From IMG/VR virus record IMGVR_UViG_3300035670_000025: DNA of 64,000 nucleotides; one strand, given 5' to 3'. The DNA comes from a virus. The notes under the pieces were generated by a model. The model was not told the origin of the DNA and did not search any database. It was given only the letters and a program-made list of their open reading frames with translations. Of the stretch, positions 4,009-63,366 are shown one piece after another; positions within the stretch are counted from its first letter, which is position 1; each line of letters begins with the position of its first letter. The position numbers and the translations under genes are program-made.

Positions 4009-5064
4009 ATGTTAATTGCTATTGTTTGTGACACACACTATGGTGCTAGATCAGATTCTACTATTCTTCTAGATAACCAAAAACAGTTTTTTGATAACAC
4101 CTTTTTCCCAACATTAAAGGAAAAGGGTGTGAATACTGTTATTCATTTGGGAGATTTAGTAGATAGAAGAAAATATATTAATTTTAATACATCAAAAAGA
4201 ATGAGAACAGATTTTCTCAATCCGTTGCAAGAATATACTGTTCATATGATTGTTGGAAATCATGATGTATTTCATAAAAATACGAACGAAGTAAACGCAT
4301 TGCAAGAATTGCTGAATAGTTATTCTTTTGATGTTTATACAAACACAACTAAAATTGTGATTGATGGTTCTCCTATTCTTTTAGTTCCTTGGATAACAAC
4401 ACAAAATGAATCGCATACAATGCAAATGATTGATGATACAAAAGCACAAATTTGTATGGGTCATTTTGAACTTTCAGGATTTGAATTTTATAAAGGTGTT
4501 GTATCAGAACATGGTATGTCTCCTGATACTTTAAGTAAATTTGATTTGGTATTTTCGGGACATTATCATCAGAAATCATCAAAAGGAAATATTCATTATC
4601 TTGGTGCTCCTTATCCAATGACTTGGGCAGATTATGATTGTCCTAGAGGATTTCATTTATTTGATACAAATATAAGAGAACTTACTTTCATTGCAAATCC
4701 TTATTCTATCTTTACACAAATTAATTATGATGATACAAACTGTAAGACATTAGAGGATATTATCCAACAGTTTGTATCATGTAATAATATTACTAACAAT
4801 TATTGTAAAGTTATTGTTAAGAAAAAGTCAAACCCATATTTGTTTGATCTTTTTATTAATGAGTTAGAGAAACAATCTCCAAACGAAATAAAAATCATTG
4901 AACATAGTATATTAGTTACTGAAGAAACGACTTTTGACCAAGCAGAAGATACAATTTCAATCTTAAGAAAAACGATTGATGGTCTTGATGTAGAAGTAAA
5001 TAAACCACAATTACAAGATTTATTTTCTGACTTATATCAGCAAGCAAGCAATATGGAAATTTGA
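4009..5064 (+). CDS. gp47: Recombination endonuclease subunit gp47 (Mre11/SbcD-like)
   Basis: DTHYG, GDLVDRRK, GNHD, GHFE, SGHYH phosphoesterase motifs. Confidence 0.95.
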   Translation: MLIAIVCDTHYGARSDSTILLDNQKQFFDNTFFPTLKEKGVNTVIHLGDLVDRRKYINFNTSKRMRTDFLNPLQEYTVHMIVGNHDVFHKNTNEVNALQELLNSYSFDVYTNTTKIVIDGSPILLVPWITTQNESHTMQMIDDTKAQICMGHFELSGFEFYKGVVSEHGMSPDTLSKFDLVFSGHYHQKSSKGNIHYLGAPYPMTWADYDCPRGFHLFDTNIRELTFIANPYSIFTQINYDDTNCKTLEDIIQQFVSCNNITNNYCKVIVKKKSNPYLFDLFINELEKQSPNEIKIIEHSILVTEETTFDQAEDTISILRKTIDGLDVEVNKPQLQDLFSDLYQQASNMEI

Positions 5065-5065
5065 T

Positions 5066-5287
5066 ATGTTGACTTTTGAAAAAATCCGATGGCAGAAAAG
5101 TATCATAAATACTCATAAAAGAACATTATCTGGGATTGATGGTGGTTATCAATTAGACCACATCATATCGATAAAATTTGGATTTGACAATAACATATCT
5201 CCTGAGGCATTATCAGAAAAAAGTAATTTGAGAATGTTGCCTTGGAAAAAGAACCTAGAAAGAAATTGGGTTAAAAATACCTTTTAA
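5066..5287 (+). pseudogene. Original gp46 N-terminus (MLTFEKIRWQ) fused to an HNH endonuclease remnant
   Basis: First 10 aa align with gp46 start; YQLDHIIS..NLRMLPWKKN is an HNH C-terminal fragment; AAAATCCGATGGCA repeated at 5081 and 5332. Confidence 0.7.
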
Positions 5288-5316
5288 GTTAAAATTATTA
5301 TGTGGAGGATGTGACC

Positions 5317-7023
5317 ATTCTTATATTTTCTAAAATCCGATGGCAAAATTTTCTGTCTACGGGAAACATGTTTACGGAAATCCAACTTAATTCTCATAAT
5401 AATACTTTAATTTGTGGGGTCAATGGTTCTGGAAAAAGTACTTTGATTGATGCGATAACATTTGTTCTTTTTGGAAAATCGTTTCGTAATATAAACAAAC
5501 CACAATTAATCAACAGTACAAATTCTAAAAATATGTTGGTAGAAATAGAATTTTCTATCAATGGAAACAAATACATAGTTCGTCGTGGAATGAAACCAAA
5601 TATATTTGAAATCTATCAAAACGGAACTTTGATAAATCAATCAGCAGACAGTAAAGATTATCAATCAATTTTAGAAAAAACAATTCTTAAAATGAATTAT
5701 AAATCATTTTGTCAGGTTGTTGTTCTTGGTTCTGCAAACTTTACTCCGTTTATGCTATTACCAGCAGCACAAAGAAGAGCATTTGTTGAAGATTTGTTGG
5801 ATATACAAATATTCACAACCATGAATGCTTTGCTTAAAGATAAAACAGCAGAAAACAAGTTTGAGATCACAGATTGTGATACCAAAATCAAGATTGCAGA
5901 AAATACTTTAGAAGTGAATAAAAAGCATAGAGAACGTGCTTCTCGTGATATCATGGAATTAATTTCTCAAAAAGAAACATTGATTAAAGAAACTCAATTA
6001 GAATTAGATACTCACAATTCTGAGTTCTCTTCCTTGGAAATTAAAAGCAATCAATTACAGTCAAAAATAAGCAAGAACAGGCAGAAAAATAAGAATGCAC
6101 TGGATAAGGCATACAATATGAGAACTGCCCTAGAATCTAAATTAAAGGGCAATGAGAAGGGTATTGCATTCTATCAGGGAAATGATTCTTGTCCCACCTG
6201 TGAACAACATATTACTTCTGATTTTAAAGATAAGAAATTGCTTGATATTTCTACAAAGAAAGAAGAAAACGAATCTATTCTCAAAGAATTATCAGAAAAG
6301 ATTTCAAAACTGGAAAAGAATCAAGAGCAAATTATTTCATGGGCAGATGAATTACAACAACTAAACAAAGAACTTATTGAACTTTCTTCTAAAATTAATT
6401 TCTGCATGAAAGTAATTTCTTCATATGAGAAAGATATCAAAGATTTGAACAATAATTCGTTGGTCGAAATTGATGATACAGAAACTATTAATAAATTGAA
6501 TTATTTGAAAAAAACAAAAGAACATCTTTTTGCTCAAAGAGAACTATATAATGTTGGTCTCGTTTTGTTGAAAGATGGTGGAATTAAGGCAAAAATTATC
6601 AAACAATATATTCCAGTTATCAATCAGATGATTAACAAGTATTTGGACGATATGGAATTTTTCTGTCAATTTACTATTGATGAAACCTTTGAAGAAAAGA
6701 TAAAGTCCAGATATAGGGATGCTTTTACCTTTGAATCTTTTTCTGAAGGAGAAAAAATGAGATTGAATCTTGCTATTCTTTTTACATGGAGAGAATTGGC
6801 AAGAATGAGAAATTCAGCAGCAACGAATCTTCTAATACTTGATGAAATCATGGATTCTTCTTTAGATTCATCTGGTACTGAAGAATTCATTAAAATTGTT
6901 CAATCGTTAACAAAACGAAATAATGTATTTGTTATTAGTCATAAGACGGATCAAATACAAGAACGATTTGAAAATATTATTAGATTTGAAAAGAAAAAGA
7001 ACTTTTCAAAGATTGTAGAATAG
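5317..7023 (+). CDS. gp46: Recombination ATPase gp46 (Rad50/SbcC-like); start uncertain (ATT 5317, GTG 5302/5311)
   Basis: GVNGSGKST, CPTC zinc hook, FSEGEK, LLILDEIMD. Confidence 0.95.
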   Translation: MLIFSKIRWQNFLSTGNMFTEIQLNSHNNTLICGVNGSGKSTLIDAITFVLFGKSFRNINKPQLINSTNSKNMLVEIEFSINGNKYIVRRGMKPNIFEIYQNGTLINQSADSKDYQSILEKTILKMNYKSFCQVVVLGSANFTPFMLLPAAQRRAFVEDLLDIQIFTTMNALLKDKTAENKFEITDCDTKIKIAENTLEVNKKHRERASRDIMELISQKETLIKETQLELDTHNSEFSSLEIKSNQLQSKISKNRQKNKNALDKAYNMRTALESKLKGNEKGIAFYQGNDSCPTCEQHITSDFKDKKLLDISTKKEENESILKELSEKISKLEKNQEQIISWADELQQLNKELIELSSKINFCMKVISSYEKDIKDLNNNSLVEIDDTETINKLNYLKKTKEHLFAQRELYNVGLVLLKDGGIKAKIIKQYIPVINQMINKYLDDMEFFCQFTIDETFEEKIKSRYRDAFTFESFSEGEKMRLNLAILFTWRELARMRNSAATNLLILDEIMDSSLDSSGTEEFIKIVQSLTKRNNVFVISHKTDQIQERFENIIRFEKKKNFSKIVE

Positions 7024-7031
7024 GAGACCTA

Positions 7032-7448
7032 ATGATAAGAATAGCATTAGCAATAGTATTAGCATTTTCAACCCCAACAATAGCAGAACCATATAAAGTA
7101 TTACGGGTGTTGGATGGGGATACTGTAGAAATAGAAGCAAAATTTTTACCAAAAGAATTGAAACAAACTTTGCTTCTCAGAATTTCTGGTATTGATAGTC
7201 CAGAAATTGGAGGAAAAGCAAAATGTCCAAATGAAAATAAATTAGCACAAGAAGCAAAATCTTTTGTTATTACAGAAATTAATAAAGCAAAAGTGGTTGA
7301 CATAAAACTTATAAAATGGGATAAGTATGGAGGCAGAATAGTTGGAGATGTTTATGTAGATGGTATTTTGTTGAGTAAGAAATTGATTGCAATGAAACTT
7401 GCAGTTTCATATGATGGAAAGAAAAAACCAGATTGGTGTAACAAATAA
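7032..7448 (+). CDS. Thermonuclease (SNase) family protein with signal peptide
   Basis: VLDGDT, LRISGIDSPE, DKYGGR. Confidence 0.85.
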   Translation: MIRIALAIVLAFSTPTIAEPYKVLRVLDGDTVEIEAKFLPKELKQTLLLRISGIDSPEIGGKAKCPNENKLAQEAKSFVITEINKAKVVDIKLIKWDKYGGRIVGDVYVDGILLSKKLIAMKLAVSYDGKKKPDWCNK

Positions 7449-7459
7449 GGATTAAAAAA

Positions 7460-7948
7460 ATGCATTATCGTATTTTTAGAGACATTTTATTTGCACTAGC
7501 ATTGACATTTTTAGTTTTTGTTATTTTTACAACAAAACCCGCAAGAGCACAAATAGATTGTTTTCCAAATTGTTTTTCTTCTGAAACAAGTCAACAAAAA
7601 CTTGTAAAGGTGAAGCAACAAAAACTTGCAAAAAAGAAAAGAATCAGAACAGTTGCAAGAACAAGAAATGTAGATTCTTCTGGGTTAGCATCCTATTATT
7701 GGCAACCACAAAGAGTTGCTTCAGGAGGATGGTTTAATCCAAATGCATTGACTGCTGCACATAGAACCTTGCCTTTTGGAACAAGAGTTAGAGTTACAAA
7801 TGTAAGAAATAATAAGTCTGTAATTGTAACAATCAATGACCGTGGACCTTTTATTAGAGGAAGAATTATTGACTTATCTCTTGCTGCTGCTAAAGTGATT
7901 GCGATGACAAAATCGGGAGTGGTTCCTGTTAAAATTGAAAGGGTATAA
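7460..7948 (+). CDS. rlpA: RlpA-family lytic transglycosylase (DPBB domain)
   Basis: ASYY, LTAAHRTLPFGTRVRVTN, INDRGPF.RGRIIDLS. Confidence 0.9.
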   Translation: MHYRIFRDILFALALTFLVFVIFTTKPARAQIDCFPNCFSSETSQQKLVKVKQQKLAKKKRIRTVARTRNVDSSGLASYYWQPQRVASGGWFNPNALTAAHRTLPFGTRVRVTNVRNNKSVIVTINDRGPFIRGRIIDLSLAAAKVIAMTKSGVVPVKIERV

Positions 7949-7949
7949 T

Positions 7950-8186
7950 ATGGATTATGAAACAGCAGTGAAAGCAGAAACAATTCTGGAAATGAAAGAT
8001 AGATTTCTCAAAACTGTTATTGATGTCATGAAAATGCATGGAGACGATAAAACAGGATTGCCAATGATTTCTGCTTCAATTGTTATGTTTGTACAAGAAT
8101 TGGATAGATCAATACATCCAGGATTTTCTTTAATTGTTTCTGAACAACTCATTTCTGATGTAAGAAAGAGAAAAGATAATGGATAG
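7950..8186 (+). CDS. Hypothetical protein
   Basis: ORF in operon context. Confidence 0.55.
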   Translation: MDYETAVKAETILEMKDRFLKTVIDVMKMHGDDKTGLPMISASIVMFVQELDRSIHPGFSLIVSEQLISDVRKRKDNG

Positions 8187-53148: not shown

Positions 53149-53206
53149 CAATTGATGATAAATATATCGTAATCCCTACCAATTATCTTTTACGATGGAG
53201 ATAGAA

Positions 53207-53746
53207 ATGAATATTAAGTCATTGTTAATTGCCACAACCGTCTGTTTGTTTTCTACAGTAGCACTAGCACAATCTGCGTTTTTTTCAACCCAAAATAAAG
53301 GTTGGGAAGTTGTCGGATATCCGCAAAGAAACGAATTGCATCCGGTTTGTCGTGGTGAAAGAAACTATAATGATGGATCGCAGTTTGCTTTAATCAAAGA
53401 TTTGGCAGATGAAGAACTTTATATTGTTCTTATGAATGCAACTTGGAATATTTCTGATGCCCCTGGAAATTATACCGCAAGGATTAATTTCTATTCTGGA
53501 AATCGAGTAACAGGTTCACACATTCAATATGAACTCTTGAATAAAAATACAATTAGAATTAGAAATATAACTGCTGAGAAATTCCTGCCAGACTTTATGG
53601 GATTTTCTAGAATGGTTATTCTAATGCCAGGGACAATTCAAAATGCAGAAATCAATTTGAATGGTTCTACAGACTTGATTGCTATTATGTCTGACTGCAT
53701 TCGAGTATTTAAATTGGGTAAAGGAAAACCTGGAACAAACCTTTAA
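53207..53746 (+). CDS. Secreted hypothetical protein
   Basis: Signal peptide ending ALA; two Cys. Confidence 0.65.
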   Translation: MNIKSLLIATTVCLFSTVALAQSAFFSTQNKGWEVVGYPQRNELHPVCRGERNYNDGSQFALIKDLADEELYIVLMNATWNISDAPGNYTARINFYSGNRVTGSHIQYELLNKNTIRIRNITAEKFLPDFMGFSRMVILMPGTIQNAEINLNGSTDLIAIMSDCIRVFKLGKGKPGTNL

Positions 53747-54407: not shown

Positions 54408-55253
54408 ATGAAAATATCATATGTGTCCGATCTCCATCTTGAGTTCTTAGACTGGCCTGATTTCTCTAATGAACCTGGTGGAGATGTTCTATTGCTGGCT
54501 GGTGATATTACTACGGCAGCAATGCTTAGACCACATAGAACAGATAAGGATGCTAGAAAGCATTCAAAGTATATGAAGAAGTTCAAGAAGGACTTGATTG
54601 ATAAGTATGATGCTGTTTATATGGTCATGGGAAATCATGAACATTATAACTCTATCTTTGGCAATACTAAGCAAGAACTGATTGATGGTTTTGCTAATCT
54701 TGAACTAACAAAGATTCGGATTCTTGATAATGATACAGTCAAGATTCACGATTGGACATTGGTTGGTGCTACTCTATGGACAGACTTCTTCAAAGGCAAT
54801 TCGTTTGCTATGTGGGATGTTGAAAGAAAGATGAACGATTATAAGTTGATTGGCAAAGAAGATGTCAAGGACATGAACTATTTCAATCGTACATCTAACA
54901 GGAAGATTGATGCTGAGTTTATTTTGAATCAGCATAATATCTCAAGGGCATACATTGAGGAAGTTATCAAAAATAATGATAAAGTGATTGTTATGACACA
55001 TCATGCACCAACACATCTATCATTGAACCAAGAACATTCTGGTAACAGTTTAGACTTTGCTTATTTCTCAAACTTATCGGATTTGATTTTGGACAATCCA
55101 TCTATCAAGTACTGGATTCATGGACACACTCATATGAATGTTGATTATGTTGTTGGTGATTCGGAGTGCCGAGTTTTATCAAATCAACGTGGTTATCATT
55201 TTGAGAAGTGTGCTTATAACTTCACTGGTTTGAGGGACATTGAATTGCCATGA
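54408..55253 (+). CDS. Calcineurin-like metallophosphoesterase
   Basis: SDLHLE, AGDI, GNHEHY, THHAP, HGHTH. Confidence 0.9.
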   Translation: MKISYVSDLHLEFLDWPDFSNEPGGDVLLLAGDITTAAMLRPHRTDKDARKHSKYMKKFKKDLIDKYDAVYMVMGNHEHYNSIFGNTKQELIDGFANLELTKIRILDNDTVKIHDWTLVGATLWTDFFKGNSFAMWDVERKMNDYKLIGKEDVKDMNYFNRTSNRKIDAEFILNQHNISRAYIEEVIKNNDKVIVMTHHAPTHLSLNQEHSGNSLDFAYFSNLSDLILDNPSIKYWIHGHTHMNVDYVVGDSECRVLSNQRGYHFEKCAYNFTGLRDIELP

Positions 55254-55438
55254 AAAGAGATTGGATACATAGAAGAACACAAGATAAGACAACATTTATG
55301 TTGAATGATTATGTTATATGTTCTGCTATTGAATTTAGTATTGACCAGTATATCTTTGGTTATGTCTACAAAGATAGAATTATTGAAAGAGGAACTCTTG
55401 TTCTTGCTATTGATAGGATAATGATAGATGTCAAATAA
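55250..55438 (+). CDS. Hypothetical protein ending in a degenerate array junction
   Basis: Coupled; 3' end ATTGATAGG...ATGTCAAATAA. Confidence 0.5.
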   Translation: MKRDWIHRRTQDKTTFMLNDYVICSAIEFSIDQYIFGYVYKDRIIERGTLVLAIDRIMIDVK

Positions 55439-55622
55439 AACAAAAGATACAATTGATAATGCCACTTATAATGCCACTTGGGATGCCACTTGGGATGTCA
55501 CTGATAATGACACTTTGAATGCCACTAGAACTGCCACAATTGCATCTTGGACTGCCACTGGAAATGTCACTTTTAATGATACTAAAGATGCTATCAGGCG
55601 AGAACTAGAACATGTCAAATAA
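55428..55622 (+). CDS. Tetrapeptide-repeat mini-protein, unit 1
   Basis: MSNKTKD...NATY NATW DATW...RELEHVK. Confidence 0.75.
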   Translation: MSNKTKDTIDNATYNATWDATWDVTDNDTLNATRTATIASWTATGNVTFNDTKDAIRRELEHVK

Positions 55623-55797
55623 AACAAAAGATGTCACTTATAATGTCACTTATAATGCCACTATAAATGCCATTGATAATGTCACTTATGATGCCACTTG
55701 GGATGCCACTTGGGATGTCACTGATAATGACACTTTGAATGCCACTTATAATGCTACTTGGGATGCTATTGAAATGGAATTGAAAAATATCTCTTGA
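55612..55797 (+). CDS. Tetrapeptide-repeat mini-protein, unit 2
   Basis: Same architecture. Confidence 0.75.
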   Translation: MSNKTKDVTYNVTYNATINAIDNVTYDATWDATWDVTDNDTLNATYNATWDAIEMELKNIS

Positions 55798-55822
55798 CTT
55801 CCATCCTTCCATATGCTATAGT
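55794..55822 (+). promoter_or_regulatory. sigma70-type promoter for DUF6745-like gene
   Basis: TTGACT-N17-TATAGT. Confidence 0.7.
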
Positions 55823-55851
55823 TACATCCTAATCAACAAAGGAACTGATCA

Positions 55852-56889
55852 ATGACTAACAATATCGTTCGTACTCCTACTAAGGCTTCTGGTGGTATCA
55901 CTGAAGAGGAGAAGATACTGCTCAAGGAGCATACCGATAAGTGGATCAAGATGATTCTACGCACAACTCCTACGGACTTTACTAAACTAAAGCCTGCTAT
56001 TGAAGGTCTATATGCTGCTGCTGATCTAGCAAAGCCTATTGTTGTTCTTGCTAAGTCACCAATCCAGATGGTATTCATGTATGGTGCTGCTTCTGCCCTT
56101 CTTTCAAAGAAGAACGCACAGGATGCACAAACTGTAATGGATACTGTTACAGAAGCATTCAATGCCGTTGATACTTCTTCAGGTGGTGTTGTTTCAAAGT
56201 ATGTTGAAGTATGTAAGAAACTCGCAGGCAAGAAGGGTATTTCAGAAGCAAAGCAGTGGTCAAATGTGTATCAGGGTGGTGCATATTGGGCACAGTATGA
56301 TGTTTATCTTACTGCTATGCGGGATGTGATTGGTCTTCAACTTCCTGAGTATGAGAAGTATAAGTATTGGGAAGAAGCAGCCATTCATGGTACATTCCGT
56401 GTTATGCATGAGAAGTTCTGTATTGTTTCGGACTTTCCACAAGTGCTGAAGATTGATGACCAGAATCGTGCTCATTTACAGAATGGTCCTTCACATCGTT
56501 GGTCTGATGGTTGGTCACTATATCATTGGCATGGTGTATCTGTTCCTGAGCATTGGATTATGGATACCAAGTCATTGAGTGCCAAGGAAGCAATTACATG
56601 GCAGAATATTGAGCAACGCCGTGCGGCATGTGAGATTCTTGGTTGGGCAAAGATCCTGGCAGAACTTGATGCTAAGGTAATTGATACTGATGGTGATCCA
56701 GAGATTGGTGAACTATTGGAGGTTACATTGCCTGACATTGGAACTGAGAAGTTTCTTCGTGTAAAGTGTGGAACAGGTCGAGAGTTTGCTTTGCCAGTTC
56801 CACCTGATATGAAGACTGCTTTACAGGCCAATGCTTGGACTTTTGGAATGGATACGAATGAGTTTGTGGTTCCGGAAGTTCGTACATAA
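55852..56889 (+). CDS. DUF6745-like protein
   Basis: CIVSDFP..L.ID..NRAH...GP..RW.DG..LY.WHGV.VP, N.EQRRA..EI.GW, C.TGR.FAL.VPP...TA..A.AWTFG. Confidence 0.7.
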   Translation: MTNNIVRTPTKASGGITEEEKILLKEHTDKWIKMILRTTPTDFTKLKPAIEGLYAAADLAKPIVVLAKSPIQMVFMYGAASALLSKKNAQDAQTVMDTVTEAFNAVDTSSGGVVSKYVEVCKKLAGKKGISEAKQWSNVYQGGAYWAQYDVYLTAMRDVIGLQLPEYEKYKYWEEAAIHGTFRVMHEKFCIVSDFPQVLKIDDQNRAHLQNGPSHRWSDGWSLYHWHGVSVPEHWIMDTKSLSAKEAITWQNIEQRRAACEILGWAKILAELDAKVIDTDGDPEIGELLEVTLPDIGTEKFLRVKCGTGREFALPVPPDMKTALQANAWTFGMDTNEFVVPEVRT

Positions 56890-56896
56890 CTGAAAA

Positions 56897-56927
56897 GAGA
56901 ACGGGAGCAAAAATGTTCCCGTTTCTC
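56897..56927 (+). terminator. Hairpin after DUF6745-like gene
   Basis: GAGAACGGGAGCA-aaaa-TGTTCCCGTTTCTC. Confidence 0.55.
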
Positions 56928-56938
56928 ATATGGAGTGA

Positions 56939-57163
56939 ATGATGATTGATAAAACAAAAGATGCCACTAAGAATGCCACTAGGGTTGCCACTTATAATGC
57001 CACTAGGGTTGCCACTGAAAATGCCACTTGGGATGCCACTTGGAATGCCACTTGGAATGCCACTAGTAATGTCACTTATAATGCCACTTGTAATGCCACT
57101 TGGGATGCCACTAGGAATGCCACTTATAATGCTATTGATAGGGAACTAGAACATGTTGAATAA
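56939..57163 (+). CDS. Tetrapeptide-repeat mini-protein, unit 3
   Basis: GGAG RBS; about 14 tetrads. Confidence 0.75.
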   Translation: MMIDKTKDATKNATRVATYNATRVATENATWDATWNATWNATSNVTYNATCNATWDATRNATYNAIDRELEHVE

Positions 57164-57350
57164 AACAAAAGATGCCACTTATAATGCCACTTGGAATGCC
57201 ACTTGGAATGCCACTTATAATGCCACTGAAAATGCCACTAGTAATGTCACTTATAATGCCACTTGTAATGCCACTTGGGATGCCACTAGGAATGCCACTT
57301 ATAATGCCACTAAGAATGCTATTGTCAGAGAACTAGAACATGTTGAATAA
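57153..57350 (+). CDS. Tetrapeptide-repeat mini-protein, unit 4
   Basis: Coupled; 187-bp unit. Confidence 0.75.
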   Translation: MLNKTKDATYNATWNATWNATYNATENATSNVTYNATCNATWDATRNATYNATKNAIVRELEHVE

Positions 57351-57537
57351 AACAAAAGATGCCACTTATAATGCCACTTATAATGCCACTAGGGTTGCCA
57401 CTGAAAATGCCACTGAAAATGCCACTAGTAATGTCACTTATAATGCCACTTGTAATGCCACTTGGGATGCCACTTGGGATGTCGCTGATAATGACACTTT
57501 GAATGCTATTGTCAGAGAACTAGAACATGTTGAATAA
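57340..57537 (+). CDS. Tetrapeptide-repeat mini-protein, unit 5
   Basis: Coupled; 187-bp unit. Confidence 0.75.
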   Translation: MLNKTKDATYNATYNATRVATENATENATSNVTYNATCNATWDATWDVADNDTLNAIVRELEHVE

Positions 57538-57727
57538 AACAAACAAAATGACAAATCATATATCACATTTAGTAGATGAAAGAATTTATCACATATTGGA
57601 TTTTCGTTCATATATGGAAATTGATTCTCATACATGTGGAAAGATAAATAGAATATCTTTTCCAACAGATTTTATCATAAAACAAGAACTTCACAGAGTA
57701 TTATTTTCACTTGACAACATCACATAA
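57527..57727 (+). CDS. Divergent array member, unit 6
   Basis: Shares MLNKT start and IKQEL end, no repeats. Confidence 0.6.
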   Translation: MLNKTNKMTNHISHLVDERIYHILDFRSYMEIDSHTCGKINRISFPTDFIIKQELHRVLFSLDNIT

Positions 57728-57739
57728 GTAGTGTATAGT
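57711..57739 (+). promoter_or_regulatory. sigma70-type promoter
   Basis: TTGACA-N17-TATAGT. Confidence 0.75.
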
Positions 57740-57772
57740 TATACCATCATCAATAAAAGATAAATGTAATAA

Positions 57773-58384
57773 ATGATAAAATGTTCTGTAAACACATGTA
57801 AAAATAATGTTAAATCCAGAGGATTGTGTAAAAAACATTATCTATATTATAGTCGTCATAATATGTTACCTGAAAAACAACCATATAAAAGACCTAAAAG
57901 ACAAAAAGAAGAATCGGTTAGGTTCTGGGAAAAAGTTGATAAAAGTAATGAAAATGGATGTTGGGTTTGGTTAGGTAATAAAAATAAACAGGGTTATGGC
58001 GAATTTATATTGGACAACAAAAAGTCTGTTAGGGCACATAGATATTCTTTTTTGCTAAGTAATGGATATATTGACAACGATAAATTTGTGTGTCATACAT
58101 GTGATAATTCTAGTTGTGTAAATCCTAATCATCTTTGGCTAGGAACAGCAGCAGAAAATAATGCTGATTGTAGAAATAAAAACAGAGCAGTTTTACCTCC
58201 AGAACAAAAAGGAGAAAATCACAGTCAGCATATATTGAAAGAAAAAGATGTCTTAGACATAAGAAAGAGGTTTAACAATGGTGTAAAACAAGCAGACTTG
58301 ATGAGAGAATATAAAGTAAGCAGAAATACTATATATAAAATATGTCGTAACTTAACATGGAAAAACTTAGGAGAAATAAAATGA
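57773..58384 (+). mobile_element. HNH homing endonuclease
   Basis: RFWEKV..CWVW.G..GYG, AHRYS, VCHTCDN..CVNP.HL..GT...NN.D. Confidence 0.9.
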
Positions 58385-58728
58385 ATATTCGTCGATTTGT
58401 TAATTGTGCGGCTCAAGGTGATATTTACATCCGTCGCATTGATACACCAATTCCTGCAAATGCTGTTGAAGTGCCGCCAGTTGGTAAGTATGTAGTTGTT
58501 ACCCACTCCGAGACTGGTCATAATCATGTGATGGAGAAGGAGAAGGTAAAGATGTATCAACTTCCTGACTCTATCATGGATTGTCTACTTGTTGTAAATG
58601 ATCCTGTTGCTCTAGAGCATCTCCGTGATTATGATACACATGAACCCATTCTATTTGAGAAGGGAACATATCATGTTCGCCGTCAGAGGGAGTATGTACC
58701 AGAAGGATATAGAAGAGTTGAAGATTGA
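58381..58728 (+). CDS. Small His-rich beta protein of the type found next to DUF6745 genes
   Basis: QGDI, HSETGHNH, H..H.PI....G.Y.VRRQREY.P...RRVED. Confidence 0.7.
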   Translation: MNIRRFVNCAAQGDIYIRRIDTPIPANAVEVPPVGKYVVVTHSETGHNHVMEKEKVKMYQLPDSIMDCLLVVNDPVALEHLRDYDTHEPILFEKGTYHVRRQREYVPEGYRRVED

Positions 58729-58775
58729 TACTGAGAGAGTCCCGTAACTGGGACTCTTTTCATATGGAGAATTTG

Positions 58776-58961
58776 ATGATAGGTAAAATCAATGATGTAA
58801 CGGTCAATGCTATTTATGTTGCTACTAAGAATGTCACATGTGATGTTACTTTGGATGTCACTAGAAATATCACAATTAATGTCATTTTGAATGCCACAAG
58901 TGATTCTACTTTTAACGCAATTAGGAATGCTATTGATAGGGAACTAGAACATGTCAAATAA
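58776..58961 (+). CDS. Tetrapeptide-repeat mini-protein, unit 7
   Basis: GGAG RBS after hairpin; ends AIDRELEHVK. Confidence 0.7.
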   Translation: MIGKINDVTVNAIYVATKNVTCDVTLDVTRNITINVILNATSDSTFNAIRNAIDRELEHVK

Positions 58962-59181
58962 AACAAAGAATGCCATTTGGTATGTCACTAGAAATGCAAC
59001 TTGGATTGCCACTGATAATGCCACTAGAACTGTCACTGATAATGCCACTAGAACTGTCACTTATAATGCTACTTATAATGTCACTTATAATGTTACTTGG
59101 AATGCCACTGATAATGCCATTTGGAATGTCACTTTTAATGCTACTGGGAATGCTATCAAAAGAGAACTAGAACATGTCTAA
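58951..59181 (+). CDS. Tetrapeptide-repeat mini-protein, unit 8
   Basis: Coupled; repeats. Confidence 0.75.
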   Translation: MSNKTKNAIWYVTRNATWIATDNATRTVTDNATRTVTYNATYNVTYNVTWNATDNAIWNVTFNATGNAIKRELEHV

Positions 59182-59380
59182 ACCAGTGAACTTTGTGAAA
59201 ATCAAAACACATAAAGTAGGCACACATTATTTCGGAACTTCAACAATGACCTTTTTGGATGATTTGACACGTGATTATTTACAAGATATAGTACTTGATA
59301 ATGTAAGAGAACGAATGACAGAAGCAACATTTGATTCTCTTCGTCTTCAAATAAAAGAGACTCTGTATAATGTCAGATAA
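59174..59380 (+). CDS. Divergent array member, unit 9
   Basis: Starts in junction motif. Confidence 0.6.
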   Translation: MSKPVNFVKIKTHKVGTHYFGTSTMTFLDDLTRDYLQDIVLDNVRERMTEATFDSLRLQIKETLYNVR

Positions 59381-59561
59381 AACATGGAATGAAATTAGGA
59401 ATATAACAAATAACATCGGCAGAACTGTTACTGCTGCCACTTCAAATGATACATGGAAACCTGTTTATTATTCTACTTCATATGTTATTTTACATAAAAC
59501 AGATACATCAATATCTTGTATTTTGACTGCTATCAAAAGAGAACTAGAACATGTCAAATAA
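59370..59561 (+). CDS. Divergent array member, unit 10
   Basis: MSDKT...AIKRELEHVK. Confidence 0.7.
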   Translation: MSDKTWNEIRNITNNIGRTVTAATSNDTWKPVYYSTSYVILHKTDTSISCILTAIKRELEHVK

Positions 59562-59739
59562 AATCGTAGATGATATTAATACATATAATAGATTAATTCT
59601 TGATGTATCAATTTACCGTGCTACAAAAGAAGCAACATGGTCAGTTTTATATTTTACTGATTATTTTCATTTCACACGCAGTATTCTTGATAATGTTATA
59701 TTCAATGAAATTGAAAAGGAACTAGAACATGTTGAATAA
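59551..59739 (+). CDS. Divergent array member, unit 11
   Basis: MSNK...KELEHVE. Confidence 0.7.
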   Translation: MSNKIVDDINTYNRLILDVSIYRATKEATWSVLYFTDYFHFTRSILDNVIFNEIEKELEHVE

Positions 59740-59923
59740 AATCAAAGATGCCATTAGAATTTCGACTTGGAATTCGACTGATATTGCCACCCATCATGCT
59801 GCTTATCATATCATTGATAATTCCACTAAAAATGTTACTTTGTTTCCAGCTTATGAGGTCACTTATAATATCACTTGGAATATCACTAATAATGCCATTT
59901 ATAAGGAACTAGAAAATGTCTGA
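59729..59923 (+). CDS. Degenerate-repeat array member, unit 12
   Basis: MLNKIKD..NSTD..NITW NITN NAIYKELENV. Confidence 0.7.
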   Translation: MLNKIKDAIRISTWNSTDIATHHAAYHIIDNSTKNVTLFPAYEVTYNITWNITNNAIYKELENV

Positions 59924-60182
59924 ATTTACTGAATTAGATGAATTAGTCAAGAACTGTGATTATAGAACTAAATTAGCAATCACTGCTTGGGTAATGGAAA
60001 ATATTGTAGATAATGCTATTGAAGGTGGAACCTTTAGATATCTCATTTATAATAAGATGGGATTTGGTGGTGATGCCTATATGCCATTATATCTAGCAGG
60101 CGGTATGACTATTACTAATGAACTAGATTTGAAGGAGAAATCTAATGTCCAGATCCAGAAAGAAGACACCAATATCCGGTAA
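59916..60182 (+). CDS. Hypothetical protein
   Basis: GGTFRYLIY...GF..AY...Y.AGGM.I.N. Confidence 0.65.
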   Translation: MSEFTELDELVKNCDYRTKLAITAWVMENIVDNAIEGGTFRYLIYNKMGFGGDAYMPLYLAGGMTITNELDLKEKSNVQIQKEDTNIR

Positions 60183-60387: not shown

Positions 60388-63366
60388 TGAAAAAATATAA
60401 TTGGGTCAATTATCCTGAAAATATCCCATCTGTTTCTGGTTATTACATGTGTGTATATTTTAATTTAGAACAAAAATGTGATTTGTTTAAAGCAATTTAT
60501 TGGAACAAAAAATGGATTCAATGGAATCCTAAAATTCAAATTGAAAATCAAGTAAAATCTTTTTTGCCTGATAGTATGGCAAAGTATTATACGACGTGTC
60601 TTTTTTGGTGGAAAGATAATTATGACAACGGATTGGTAGAGAAATATAAGGATGACTGATATTATTGAACTACTGAATAATATGAATATCAAGGATGATT
60701 TTGGATTTCCAAGAGATGATGTCAGGCAACAAGTAATTGGTGAAATCGTTAGATTGAGACTTTCTTTAGAGAGAATTTTGCTTGATGTGAAGTTCATGGT
60801 TGAAAATGATACGATACCTTATGTGCTAGATGATTTTATTTATCAACAAGCATTAGAACTAATGACACCAGAATTCATGAAAGAGTTTAATAATGACTGA
60901 CATTGTAGAGAAACTAGAAAAGTATGGTACTAAAGGTGATAAATGAAACCGGATAGGAAAATAAGAAATGTTTATAATTGTGTAGTTTTTAGTACATCAG
61001 ACTCAATTCAAGATGAAAAATTGTATAGTAGTGTATATTATTTAACAGATGTAATTTCTTCACAAAAAGTTTTATCTATAGCAACTATAAATTTGCAAAA
61101 CATTGTTAAAGATATGTTTAAGAGCATTTCAAATGACTGATATAGATTCTCTTATCAAGAAATTGATTAATATAGCAACACACAATTCAGTAGTAAATTC
61201 AACCGATTCAGTCACATATAATATGATTATGACTATTACACATCAAGCAAGTTATCTTGGTACACATAATCCTATAAGAGATGCTATTTATAGTGAGATT
61301 TGGAATGATCTTGAAAGGAATGCGAAATGAAAGACATAACAATGTCAGGTTGGATTTTCTTTATTATGTTGTTTGTGTTGTTTGTCTTATTGATCAAGGA
61401 TGTATTATGAATAGAGAAATGTGTAATAACTGTAAATTCTGGGAACAAGACTTGGATAGGGGTAAGTGTAGACGGTTTCCACCCCTACACTGGTTTGTGG
61501 GTGGAAAATGGGAACAACCAACAACAAACTTTAATCAATGGTGTGGAGAATATAAGCAAAATGAATCTTCAAGAAAAAGTTGATCTTGCGTATGAAGAAG
61601 GCAAGAACGCATATTATGATGGTAAGAAACCAGAAGATAATCCATATACTGGCATAGACCAAGATTATGAATTTGATGCCTGGAAAGAAGGATATTACAA
61701 TGCCGCATGGGACGATTGAAGGTTGAACAAAATGAAAATTCATAAGTTTGAAGTTTATGTTCTGGACTTTGAAGATTATGGTCCAAATGAATATAAGAAC
61801 ATCATTGAAAATAAAATTGATTTTGTCAAAGTGTTCGTTCAAGGTTCATCAAAAAAAATTAAATGGACAGATGAACATGAATTAAATAAGAATACTGCTA
61901 CAATTGAAACTTGGAGGAAGTATGTGATATGAATGATTATCAAAAAGAATATTGCTCTATGATTACATATAAAGTAATTCCCAGAGATTCATATGTTCAA
62001 TTGACAGGTAAAGTGATAGATGTCGAAATTATCATTTATCATATTGACGAAGAAGAAAGTCCTATTCTAACAGGTAGACTTGATTGGCAAGATGGTCTAC
62101 ATATCTGGCAGTCAGAATGTATTGATCCTTTCACATGGTCAACAGTTGCCAATCAAATGCTTTTAGCAATGAAAGCAGCAAAAGAACTGATAGATCCTGT
62201 GACATATTGTGCTGGTGAACCAGAATGAGTTATCATATCTTTGATGAAACAACATCTAAAATAAACAAAATATTTCATGATGTTTTAGATAAAACAGAAA
62301 TAAATTATGAATTAGAAAGATTGATGGGTTTAAGAGCATCACAATTTGTTGGTAATCTTATTGACAACAATGTTTATAATGCTATTAATAAGGAATTAAA
62401 CAATGTATCTTAGTTTCAATATTTCTTTTCCATATAAGAAACATACGAAACATATTGATTATGTAGTTAAAACATGGTCAATTAGTAAAAACAAATCACT
62501 AGAACTACAAATATCTAAATGGGGCAATTCATGGACTTTGTTTGGTATTATAATCAGTCCTTCTTGGTATAGATCACATTCTGGATTTCTATTTGATATT
62601 ACATTATTCAACTATTGTATGATTATTAACTTCTATGATAACAGACACTGGAATTATGAAGAAGGTAGATGGTGCAGAGATGACGAATACGACTAATAAT
62701 CAAATAGAACTATTCAAAGTTGTTTGTGATGAAACAAATAATACTAAAGAATCTCTTGAACAAGGATATCTAAAAGTTGATATTTTTGTTCCTCAATATT
62801 ATTATGAATTAAAATTTATAGTGAACAAAGATGGAAAAATAGAATATGAAGAATAGAACATGGATTTATGAATATCCTGGTGGTGAACGAGGTGAAATAT
62901 ACTGTTCTGAAACTATAACAGATAAAGAAATTCTAGAAGAACGTTGGGATTGGTGGAAAGAACTAATGATCAAAAAGCATGGTGCTAATTCAAAACTAAT
63001 TACAAAAGAAAACTGTATTCGTGATTGGGTTGTTGATAATTATGCTTGGGAATTGAAAGATGAGTAACTGATTGATTTTATAACAAAATTAGGTGCTTGA
63101 CATTCATGTTCCAGTATGATAGTATTGGAACATAATCGTTGCTATGGAGACTGGAAATGAACTATCAGCAATATTGGGAACAGTTTCTTCCACTTTTTCC
63201 AAAAGGATGGACACTGATTGATTATGATATTGATGCTGAAGCACTATACGGTGATGATAAATTAGTAGGAAAGACATTGACACTGACACATTTACATGCT
63301 AATCTTATCAAGAATGCTGTTGTGGCAGGTCGTATGGACTCTAAATTTATGGAAAATTTACTATGA
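60387..63366 (+). CDS. Run of short coupled hypothetical ORFs (about 12 genes)
   Basis: Overlapping start/stop ORFs of 60-105 aa; some resemble degenerate array members. Confidence 0.5.
63097..63125 (+). promoter_or_regulatory. sigma70-type early promoter
   Basis: TTGACA-N17-TAGTAT. Confidence 0.6.

Follow-up and report, generated by a model that had tools for sequence, protein, structure and literature searches.

A tetrapeptide tract apparently moved out of a DUF6745 core gene into a set of coupled mini-genes in an uncultured T4-like phage

Introduction

Gp54 of mycobacteriophage Tweety is an early, non-essential protein with a central in-frame 12-nucleotide (nt) repeat, which encodes a tetrapeptide with fixed and variable positions; synonymous positions of the repeat are invariant, and relatives differ in copy number (PMC2884959). 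Escape from the Phrann gp29/gp30 defence is tuned by the number of repeats, in which escape mutants differ (PMC9262239). Variable region 2 of bbp36 from Bordetella phage BMP-1 was cited as similar by the Tweety authors (PMC2884959). Tweety gp54 consists of an N-domain, 48 A-A-x-x units and a short C-tail. Here we analyze positions 55428–59923 of IMG/VR virus record IMGVR_UViG_3300035670_000025, a stretch of 64,000 nt that we call the window. In this region a gene for a DUF6745 protein (the core) and a conserved His-bearing gene (the partner) are surrounded by small open reading frames (mini-ORFs) built from tetrapeptide units (tetrads), in each of which one position, X, varies.

We propose that a two-gene phage module, widespread and composed of a DUF6745 protein and a His-bearing β-protein of ~113 amino acids (aa), is present here in split form. 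In most relatives a fast-changing tetrad tract would lie between two helices of the N-terminal domain of DUF6745. In the phage clade of the window the core appears to have lost this tract, and about ten translationally coupled mini-genes around core and partner would encode it instead. The transfer of the tract from the core to a mini-gene set with quick turnover is well supported. Many uncultured phages share the feature, of which the literature searched has no description; nor does it mention DUF6745.

Results and Discussion

The core protein and the tract of its relatives

The core gene (55852–56889) matches the Pfam family DUF6745 (PF20530) with an E-value of 1.2e-21 and 77.4 bits against a cut-off of 27 (residues 179–338), as a preliminary description made from the letters alone had suggested. 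Homologues of the window core numbered 2023 at E ≤ 0.001, and with more than 2000 homologues found DUF6745 is a very large phage and prophage family. A lag-4 repeat score of 0 indicates that the window core has no internal tetrapeptide tract between the SP helix and the LAG/YQGG block. In the AlphaFold2 (AF2) model this slot sits between helix 70–84 and helix 113–134. A protein 96% identical to the window core (P0001) likewise has a short, non-repetitive slot.

Several core homologues are 380–560 aa long, compared with 345 aa for the window core, and their extra length is a run of 16–59 tetrads. In P0047, P0048, P0073, P0109, P0081 and P0051 this run of 16–59 tetrads occupies the position of the short slot, between the S-P-L-V-M-A-F-A-Y-G-A helix and the A-C-x-x-L-A-G / Y-Q-G-G block. 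AT-rich contigs use the unit x-N-A-T, GC-rich ones x-A-A-T. The preliminary description had mentioned an internal tetrad tract in many proteins of this family and had called the slot of the window core short and non-repetitive; the tract is present at exactly the slot named, and the slot sequence agrees.

When a profile of the mini-proteins was aligned with P0051, it spanned the entire insert (residues 87–148), from the entry S-N to the exit N-V-I-E, with 98% probability, a type of score that low complexity inflates. The match of the slot together with the alignment over the whole insert establishes homology between mini-proteins and cis tract and, as far as sequence can tell, makes the mini-proteins free-standing equivalents of the tract, ends included.

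Distribution of cis tracts and free-standing arrays

Four further loci (L001, L020, L025 and L026) show the layout of the window, with tetrad mini-ORFs on either side of a tract-less core and the partner lying between mini-ORFs. The order is mini-ORFs, core, mini-ORFs, partner, mini-ORFs in all four, and the junction sequence is different in each. The co-occurrence of arrays with core and partner in other genomes, which the preliminary description had made a test of its proposal, is thus observed. Loci L022, L023, L024 and L028 have a long cis tract, the partner directly adjacent and no mini-ORFs; L024 is a GC-rich prophage with an integrase and a cI-like repressor. On the 2-kb contig L027, which may be chimeric, an N-domain is followed by 12 units, a mini-type tail, the partner and three mini-ORFs.

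For a census we took 80 partner-anchored loci of 336 in one viral collection, scored each ORF by a residue-independent lag-4 repeat measure and clustered the cores at 90% identity, which left 57 non-redundant loci. The cis tract is present in 32 of them. Free-standing tetrad mini-ORFs occur at 15 of the 25 tract-less cores versus 2 of the 32 tract-bearing ones (Fisher p = 1.6e-5, a value that overstates independence because the loci are related, and is an upper bound on the strength of the association). One of the two tract-bearing cores with mini-ORFs is a false positive caused by a GYGSG repeat. Judged by sequence, cis tracts and free-standing arrays are largely complementary across loci. 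The expectation that the tract would be found in cis where arrays are missing, and be absent where they flank the gene, therefore stands as a tendency and not as a rule: ten of the 25 tract-less clusters have no arrays, and one locus (L029) has both forms. Because these ten clusters have neither cis tract nor detectable arrays, the tract is dispensable in some lineages and core and partner can work without it.

In other clades the units of the mini-ORFs are x-N-Q-V, x-D-Q-V and x-N-Q-L, and their X position is again rich in W, R, Y, D, E and S. Two apparent repeat relatives were rejected as false positives, L019 (a PES repeat of a giant virus) and the ORF L013:3506 (a GYGSG repeat). Locus L002, with 69% core identity, carries coupled ORFs of 63–83 aa on both sides of a tract-less core (4493–5912 and 7029–8110). 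They contain no detectable tetrads and have similar tails (…I-E-R-R-L-D-V and …A-I-D-R-G-L-E-D-V). They may be fully degenerate members missed by the repeat measure, in which case the census undercounts arrays. Tetrads of the type W/R-D-A-[AT] were also observed in P0124, P0139 and P0151 (115–156 aa), which end in a different small C-terminal domain (A-L-I-A-[WY]-D-D ...) without a Pfam match. Because these proteins carry tetrads with another domain, the repeat is not confined to DUF6745.

The distribution bears on the question whether the mini-proteins work with the core at all. They might act alone, as small helical binders, inhibitors or decoys of host factors without contact to core or partner, and would then lie close to DUF6745 only through their origin in its tract and a shared early expression. 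This would suit the extent of the arrays, which continue well beyond core and partner as far as 59923, with further, distant members at 61103 and 62225, and the non-family small ORFs on the same junction. It would also suit L027, which seems to keep partner and mini-ORFs without the C-domain of DUF6745, and the ten clusters in which core and partner are found without any tract. However, the near-exclusive distribution of cis tracts and mini-ORFs is easier to understand if both serve the same function of the module, and the mini-ORFs remain syntenic with core and partner even where clades differ in their repeat unit. We regard independent action as unlikely, and as the most serious of the alternatives.

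Organization of the array

The features of the locus are as follows (window coordinates; + denotes the strand shown).

55428–55622, +, mini-ORF 1, 64 aa, 8 tetrads, C-terminus ELEHVK, family profile E 5e-29
55612–55797, +, mini-ORF 2, 61 aa, 9 tetrads, start overlaps the stop of mini-ORF 1 by 11 nt
55794–55822, +, sigma-70-like site TTGACT-17-TATAGT before the core gene, consensus match only
55852–56889, +, DUF6745 core, 345 aa, slot at about residues 85–112 short and non-repetitive, AF2 predicted local distance difference test (pLDDT) score 90.3
56939–57163, +, mini-ORF 3, 74 aa, 14 tetrads
57153–57350, +, mini-ORF 4, 65 aa, 12 tetrads
57340–57537, +, mini-ORF 5, 65 aa, tail block in common with mini-ORFs 1 and 2 across the core gene
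57527–57727, +, ORF with the family junction (MLNKTN) at its start and a divergent remainder
57773–58384, +, HNH homing endonuclease with C-terminal helix-turn-helix, inserted in the array (PF13392, phrog_3593)
58381–58728, +, conserved partner, 115 aa, predicted all-β, four invariant His, phrog_27831 match
58764–58961, +, mini-ORF 6, ATG at 58764 (MENLM), a start that agrees with relatives; TTG at 58725 also possible
58951–59181, +, mini-ORF 7, 76 aa, 13 tetrads
59174–59380, +, non-family ORF of 68 aa inside the array, joined by the family overlap junction
59370–59561, +, mini-ORF 8, degenerate body, family termini, family profile E 3e-17
59551–59739, +, mini-ORF 9, degenerate body, family termini, P0125 a close variant
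59729–59923, +, mini-ORF 10, partly degenerate
61103–61330, +, distant family member beyond the region analyzed, profile E 6e-7

Ten members of the mini-ORF family (61–78 aa) lie in 55428–59923 in a translationally coupled arrangement. They form three blocks around core and partner (55428–55797, 56939–57537 and 58725–59923). The earlier count of about 12 included the ORF at 57527–57727, which diverges, and the one at 59174–59380, which is joined by the junction and is not of the family. The latter is absent from the close relative L036. Seven of the ten members consist of x-[N/D]-[A/V]-T units with 6–14 clean tetrads each, and three (59370, 59551 and 59729) are degenerate and retain the shared termini. 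Starts of the form M[SL][ND]K are found in eight of ten and ends of the form ELE[HN]V in nine, the tail type being A-I-x-x-E-L-E-H-V; the member at 55612 ends in ELKNIS. Position 4 of the tetrad (X) has an entropy of 3.27 bits versus 1.82 bits for position 1; positions 2 and 3 served for picking the tetrads, and their low entropy is partly by construction. Residues at X are mostly W, Y, R and D. A further small ORF with a family-like tail was seen at 62225–62413 (profile E 0.002). Through this ORF and the one at 61103, 1–2.5 kb past 59923, the family may reach further into a block of small early-type genes.

Tandem Repeats Finder detected the 12-nt period and, in addition, a higher-order repeat of 187 nt (three copies, 87% identity). 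Successive mini-ORFs overlap by 11 nt, with the start codon placed within the H-V codons of the preceding tail. At each junction the frame shifts by +1 and the phase of the 12-nt repeat shifts along with it, so that N-A-T is in frame with the local start. Reading-frame conservation, the lack of which was to have told against the preliminary description, is therefore present throughout. Because the repeat phase tracks the frame at each junction, which is hard to explain otherwise, the mini-ORFs are most probably read as protein. Two non-family small ORFs, 59174–59380 and 59916–60182, are both entered through the family junction. The exact junction sequence had no occurrence in the metagenome or viral collections searched.

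Long M-P-L-x frames overlap the mini-ORFs at 56946–57502, 58970–59170 and 59748–59912. We rejected them as genes and regard them as by-products: in the +1 frame ATGCCACT contains no stop and supplies an ATG every 12 nt, and relatives read the tract as N-A-T within a conserved protein. A general role of N-A-T as an N-glycosylation site was likewise discarded, as GC-rich relatives use x-A-A-T and other clades x-N-Q-V.

The ESM Atlas model of mini-ORF 4 is a single long helix (pLDDT 0.79), and three viral clusters in this resource contain 80–100 similar small proteins. We provisionally assume from this model that each mini-protein forms one long helix.

Codon usage and turnover of the array

Each fixed position of the tetrad uses one codon, and AAT-GCC-ACT accounts for nearly all units of the window. 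The Ala of the tetrad is encoded by GCC in 48 of 53 cases, whereas GCC makes up only 6% of the Ala codons in the long ORFs of the window. Every genome has a uniform set of its own, such as GCA-ACT in L020, GCG-ACC in L022 and GCC-ACG in L010, and where cis and trans tracts coexist in one genome they have the same set. Uniform codons per genome imply homogenization within the genome, i.e. concerted evolution, and not a universal DNA motif. The codon for X escapes this homogenization, which points to selection for diversity at X.

With nine of every 12 nt nearly invariant, synonymous positions included, and a rare codon in use, the repeat could also be thought to function as DNA, as a series of binding sites or a recombination signal, with incidental ORFs. 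In that case the fixed nucleotides would hardly vary by genome (GCC ACT, GCA ACT, GCG ACC, GCC ACG) while the amino-acid pattern is kept. The repeat phase moreover tracks the start codon of each ORF, and relatives read the repeat inside a conserved protein. Such a role is therefore barely credible.

A comparison of two equally long paralogues shows 11 differing codons. Each of the 11 differences is nonsynonymous, six of them fall on X positions, and there are none in the 17 codons outside the tract. The units are mosaics, with exact blocks of 24–72 nt common to different units, some across the core gene; mini-ORFs 1 and 2 have a block of 56 nt in common. Length differences between units are multiples of 12 nt. 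The pattern of a diversity-generating retroelement is absent from the tetrads: AAT is the conserved codon and all three bases of the X codon vary. No reverse transcriptase was seen among the ORFs examined at 53–62 kb, the part of the window scanned for one. The lack of the retroelement pattern agrees with the earlier proposal of diversification without a reverse transcriptase. The accompanying idea that the mini-ORFs serve as gene-conversion donors to the core is unlikely, as the window core has no acceptor tract.

A comparison of array content across relatives, as proposed in the preliminary description, was possible with the 2-kb contig L036, which matches the window with 98.5% and 95.4% identity in its two flanks. 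Within these near-identical flanks the partner of L036 is followed by an HNH gene other than that of the window, other mini-ORFs replace 58789–59524, and the right-hand breakpoint lies at the conserved junction. Array content hence turns over between very close relatives by replacement of cassettes, while the neighboring genes stay put. Contig joints in other metagenomes that link units in other orders were not counted; their sides are short, their likeness is 85%, and they may be repeat-driven assembly paths.

The endonuclease gene of the window (57773–58384) matches HNH_3 (PF13392) with 35.7 bits against a cut-off of 24.8 and phrog_3593 with an E-value of 2.5e-31. Homing-type HNH genes were observed inside the arrays of two close relatives at different sites, at 57773–58384 in the window and at 203–652 in L036. 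The ORF at 57527–57727 is probably a mini-gene interrupted by the endonuclease cassette, and endonuclease-induced breaks may drive cassette turnover.

These HNH genes, the seemingly interrupted unit and the three degenerate units are what would be expected if the arrays were by-products, i.e. if the tract had been broken up and amplified by slippage and endonuclease-induced recombination, leaving neutral or selfish passenger ORFs. Yet no fewer than 15 non-redundant lineages, which differ in junction and repeat unit, have retained start, stop and in-frame tetrads. The scaffold positions are conserved while X varies, and all 11 differences between the two paralogues are nonsynonymous. We consider a by-product improbable.

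The partner protein

Partner homologues adjoin the core in L020–L029 and in most of the 80 partner-anchored loci. The suggested pairing of the two genes thus proved accurate, the partner being nearly always adjacent. In the relatives it is a conserved His-bearing gene of ~113 aa downstream of the core, and four His are invariant across 14 homologues. The AF2 model is all β (pLDDT 81.9). Its best structural match had a Z-score of 4.0, and searches of PDB sequences and Pfam returned nothing. For the core, Foldseek and VIA-align against the PDB gave generic helical matches only (best Z-score 5.9 over 71 residues). PADLOC defence profiles matched neither core, partner, mini-protein nor P0047.

The four invariant His could hold a metal, and two conserved proteins are encoded next to numerous small ORFs that are conserved at their ends and variable in the middle. 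A locus of this kind might encode ribosomally synthesized and post-translationally modified peptides (RiPPs), the mini-ORFs being precursors (leader, variable core, follower) modified by DUF6745 and the His-bearing partner. In most relatives, however, the DUF6745 protein itself contains the tract as an internal insert. The neighbors include no Pfam family of a protease, a transporter or exporter, or a known modifying enzyme, and the genes stand in an early-type region of a phage. A RiPP system is thus very improbable.

The phage and the neighborhood

The source of the locus is an uncultured T4-like phage. The stretch is AT-rich (~33% GC) and has a T4-type replication module with a family B DNA polymerase, a gp41-like helicase, an SMC-like gp46 and a class II ribonucleotide reductase. 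The polymerase is 48–49% identical to those of Synechococcus T4-like phages. A megablast of region 55428–59923 against 50,697 phage records gave no match at the DNA level. A tblastn search with the core found no close relative in any cultured phage, the best named hits being Microcystis phages with 24% identity. Of the sampled words of the stretch, 96–97% are present in three runs of one subsurface-metagenome study, and partial relatives were found in lake, marine and sediment metagenomes.

Upstream of the array, 53195–53746 encodes a 183-aa protein whose start resembles a signal peptide and which recurs upstream in L001 and L034. A calcineurin-like phosphoesterase follows at 54408–55253, and the core has a Metallophos gene upstream of it in L003, L004, L020, L026 and L029. 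Because the 183-aa protein and the Metallophos genes recur upstream of the core in relatives, the neighborhood is syntenic.

Promoter-like sites precede the core gene, the HNH gene and mini-ORF 8. They match by consensus only and are no more common at the locus than in shuffled sequence, so that the early promoters of the preliminary description were not upheld. The T4 late-promoter motif was not found on the coding strand between 53.8 and 61.2 kb. Directly after the stop of the core gene, 56900–56923 can form a 7-bp hairpin (AACGGGA ... TCCCGTT), which has no T-run and is not a canonical terminator.

Proposed mode of action

Based on these results we propose the following scheme. Each mini-protein would be one long helix in which one residue in four differs from unit to unit. 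The library would change by three routes: in-register recombination between 12-nt units, block exchange between copies, and replacement of whole cassettes at the conserved stop/start junction. Selection would maintain the scaffold positions and diversify the fourth. The mini-proteins would be made early in infection and would provide interchangeable variable surfaces that act with core and partner, and by analogy with Tweety gp54 the module could serve phage-host conflict.

We give a little better than an even chance to this reading as a whole, in which a tract detached into a fast-turnover mini-gene set acts with the DUF6745 core and the partner in phage-host conflict. Within it, the working of variable surfaces with core and partner in such a conflict is inferred. 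More tentatively, and with less confidence than in the reading as a whole, one core and partner may use many interchangeable, genome-encoded helices as specificity subunits. This would amount to a germline repertoire of recognition surfaces against varying host defences, diversified by in-register 12-nt recombination and cassette swapping and not by a reverse transcriptase.

Several points weigh against the scheme, beside the relatedness of the census loci. L029 combines 16 cis units with one 46-aa mini-ORF, i.e. both states together, and 10 of the 25 tract-less clusters show neither. The strict period of 4.0 residues fits canonical coiled coils poorly, and the helix model may be wrong. Because core and partner resemble no known fold, a role of the module in defence or conflict is suggested only by its analogy to a protein that is not homologous to it.

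The only studied protein of like design, Tweety gp54, is a mutationally tunable counter-defence protein (PMC9262239). The split form places the variable and the conserved parts in different genes, which makes the role of the tract and its partners directly testable. Should the mini-proteins indeed serve a single core, the phage would maintain its repertoire of binding surfaces in a manner new for viruses. As modeled, the small W/Y/R-rich helices could also serve as a natural binder scaffold.

Comparison with known systems

Transcription activator-like (TAL) effectors have repeats that are nearly identical in DNA except for the codons of the specificity residues. These are 34-residue repeats within one protein and follow a known DNA-reading code, whereas no code or nucleic-acid target is indicated at our locus. 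Variable region 2 of BMP-1 bbp36, which we compared by description only, resembles the locus in that a non-essential phage gene contains in-frame tandem repeats whose copy number is variable (PMC2884959), and differs in its 24-bp unit inside one gene.

The closest known analogue is mycobacteriophage Tweety gp54, together with Che8 gp57 and PMC gp51 (phrog_3416), as an analogy of design only. Like gp54, the locus has in-frame 12-nt units with fixed and variable codons, and the number of units varies among relatives. The proteins are not homologous: gp54 has no Pfam DUF6745 match, belongs to a different PHROG and gave an hhalign probability of 0.09%. Its repeat is in cis, its unit A-A-x-x has two variable residues, and neither a His-bearing partner nor an array of mini-genes is described for it.

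True relatives of the locus are the DUF6745 proteins with a cis tract. P0047, P0048, P0073 and P0109 are 57–70% identical over the flanks and have the same partner gene directly downstream. They use the same x-[N/A/D]-A-T unit and the same spectrum at X as the mini-ORFs of the window. In these proteins the tract is an internal insert of 16 to ~60 units with no mini-ORFs nearby, whereas in the window the units are spread over about ten genes.

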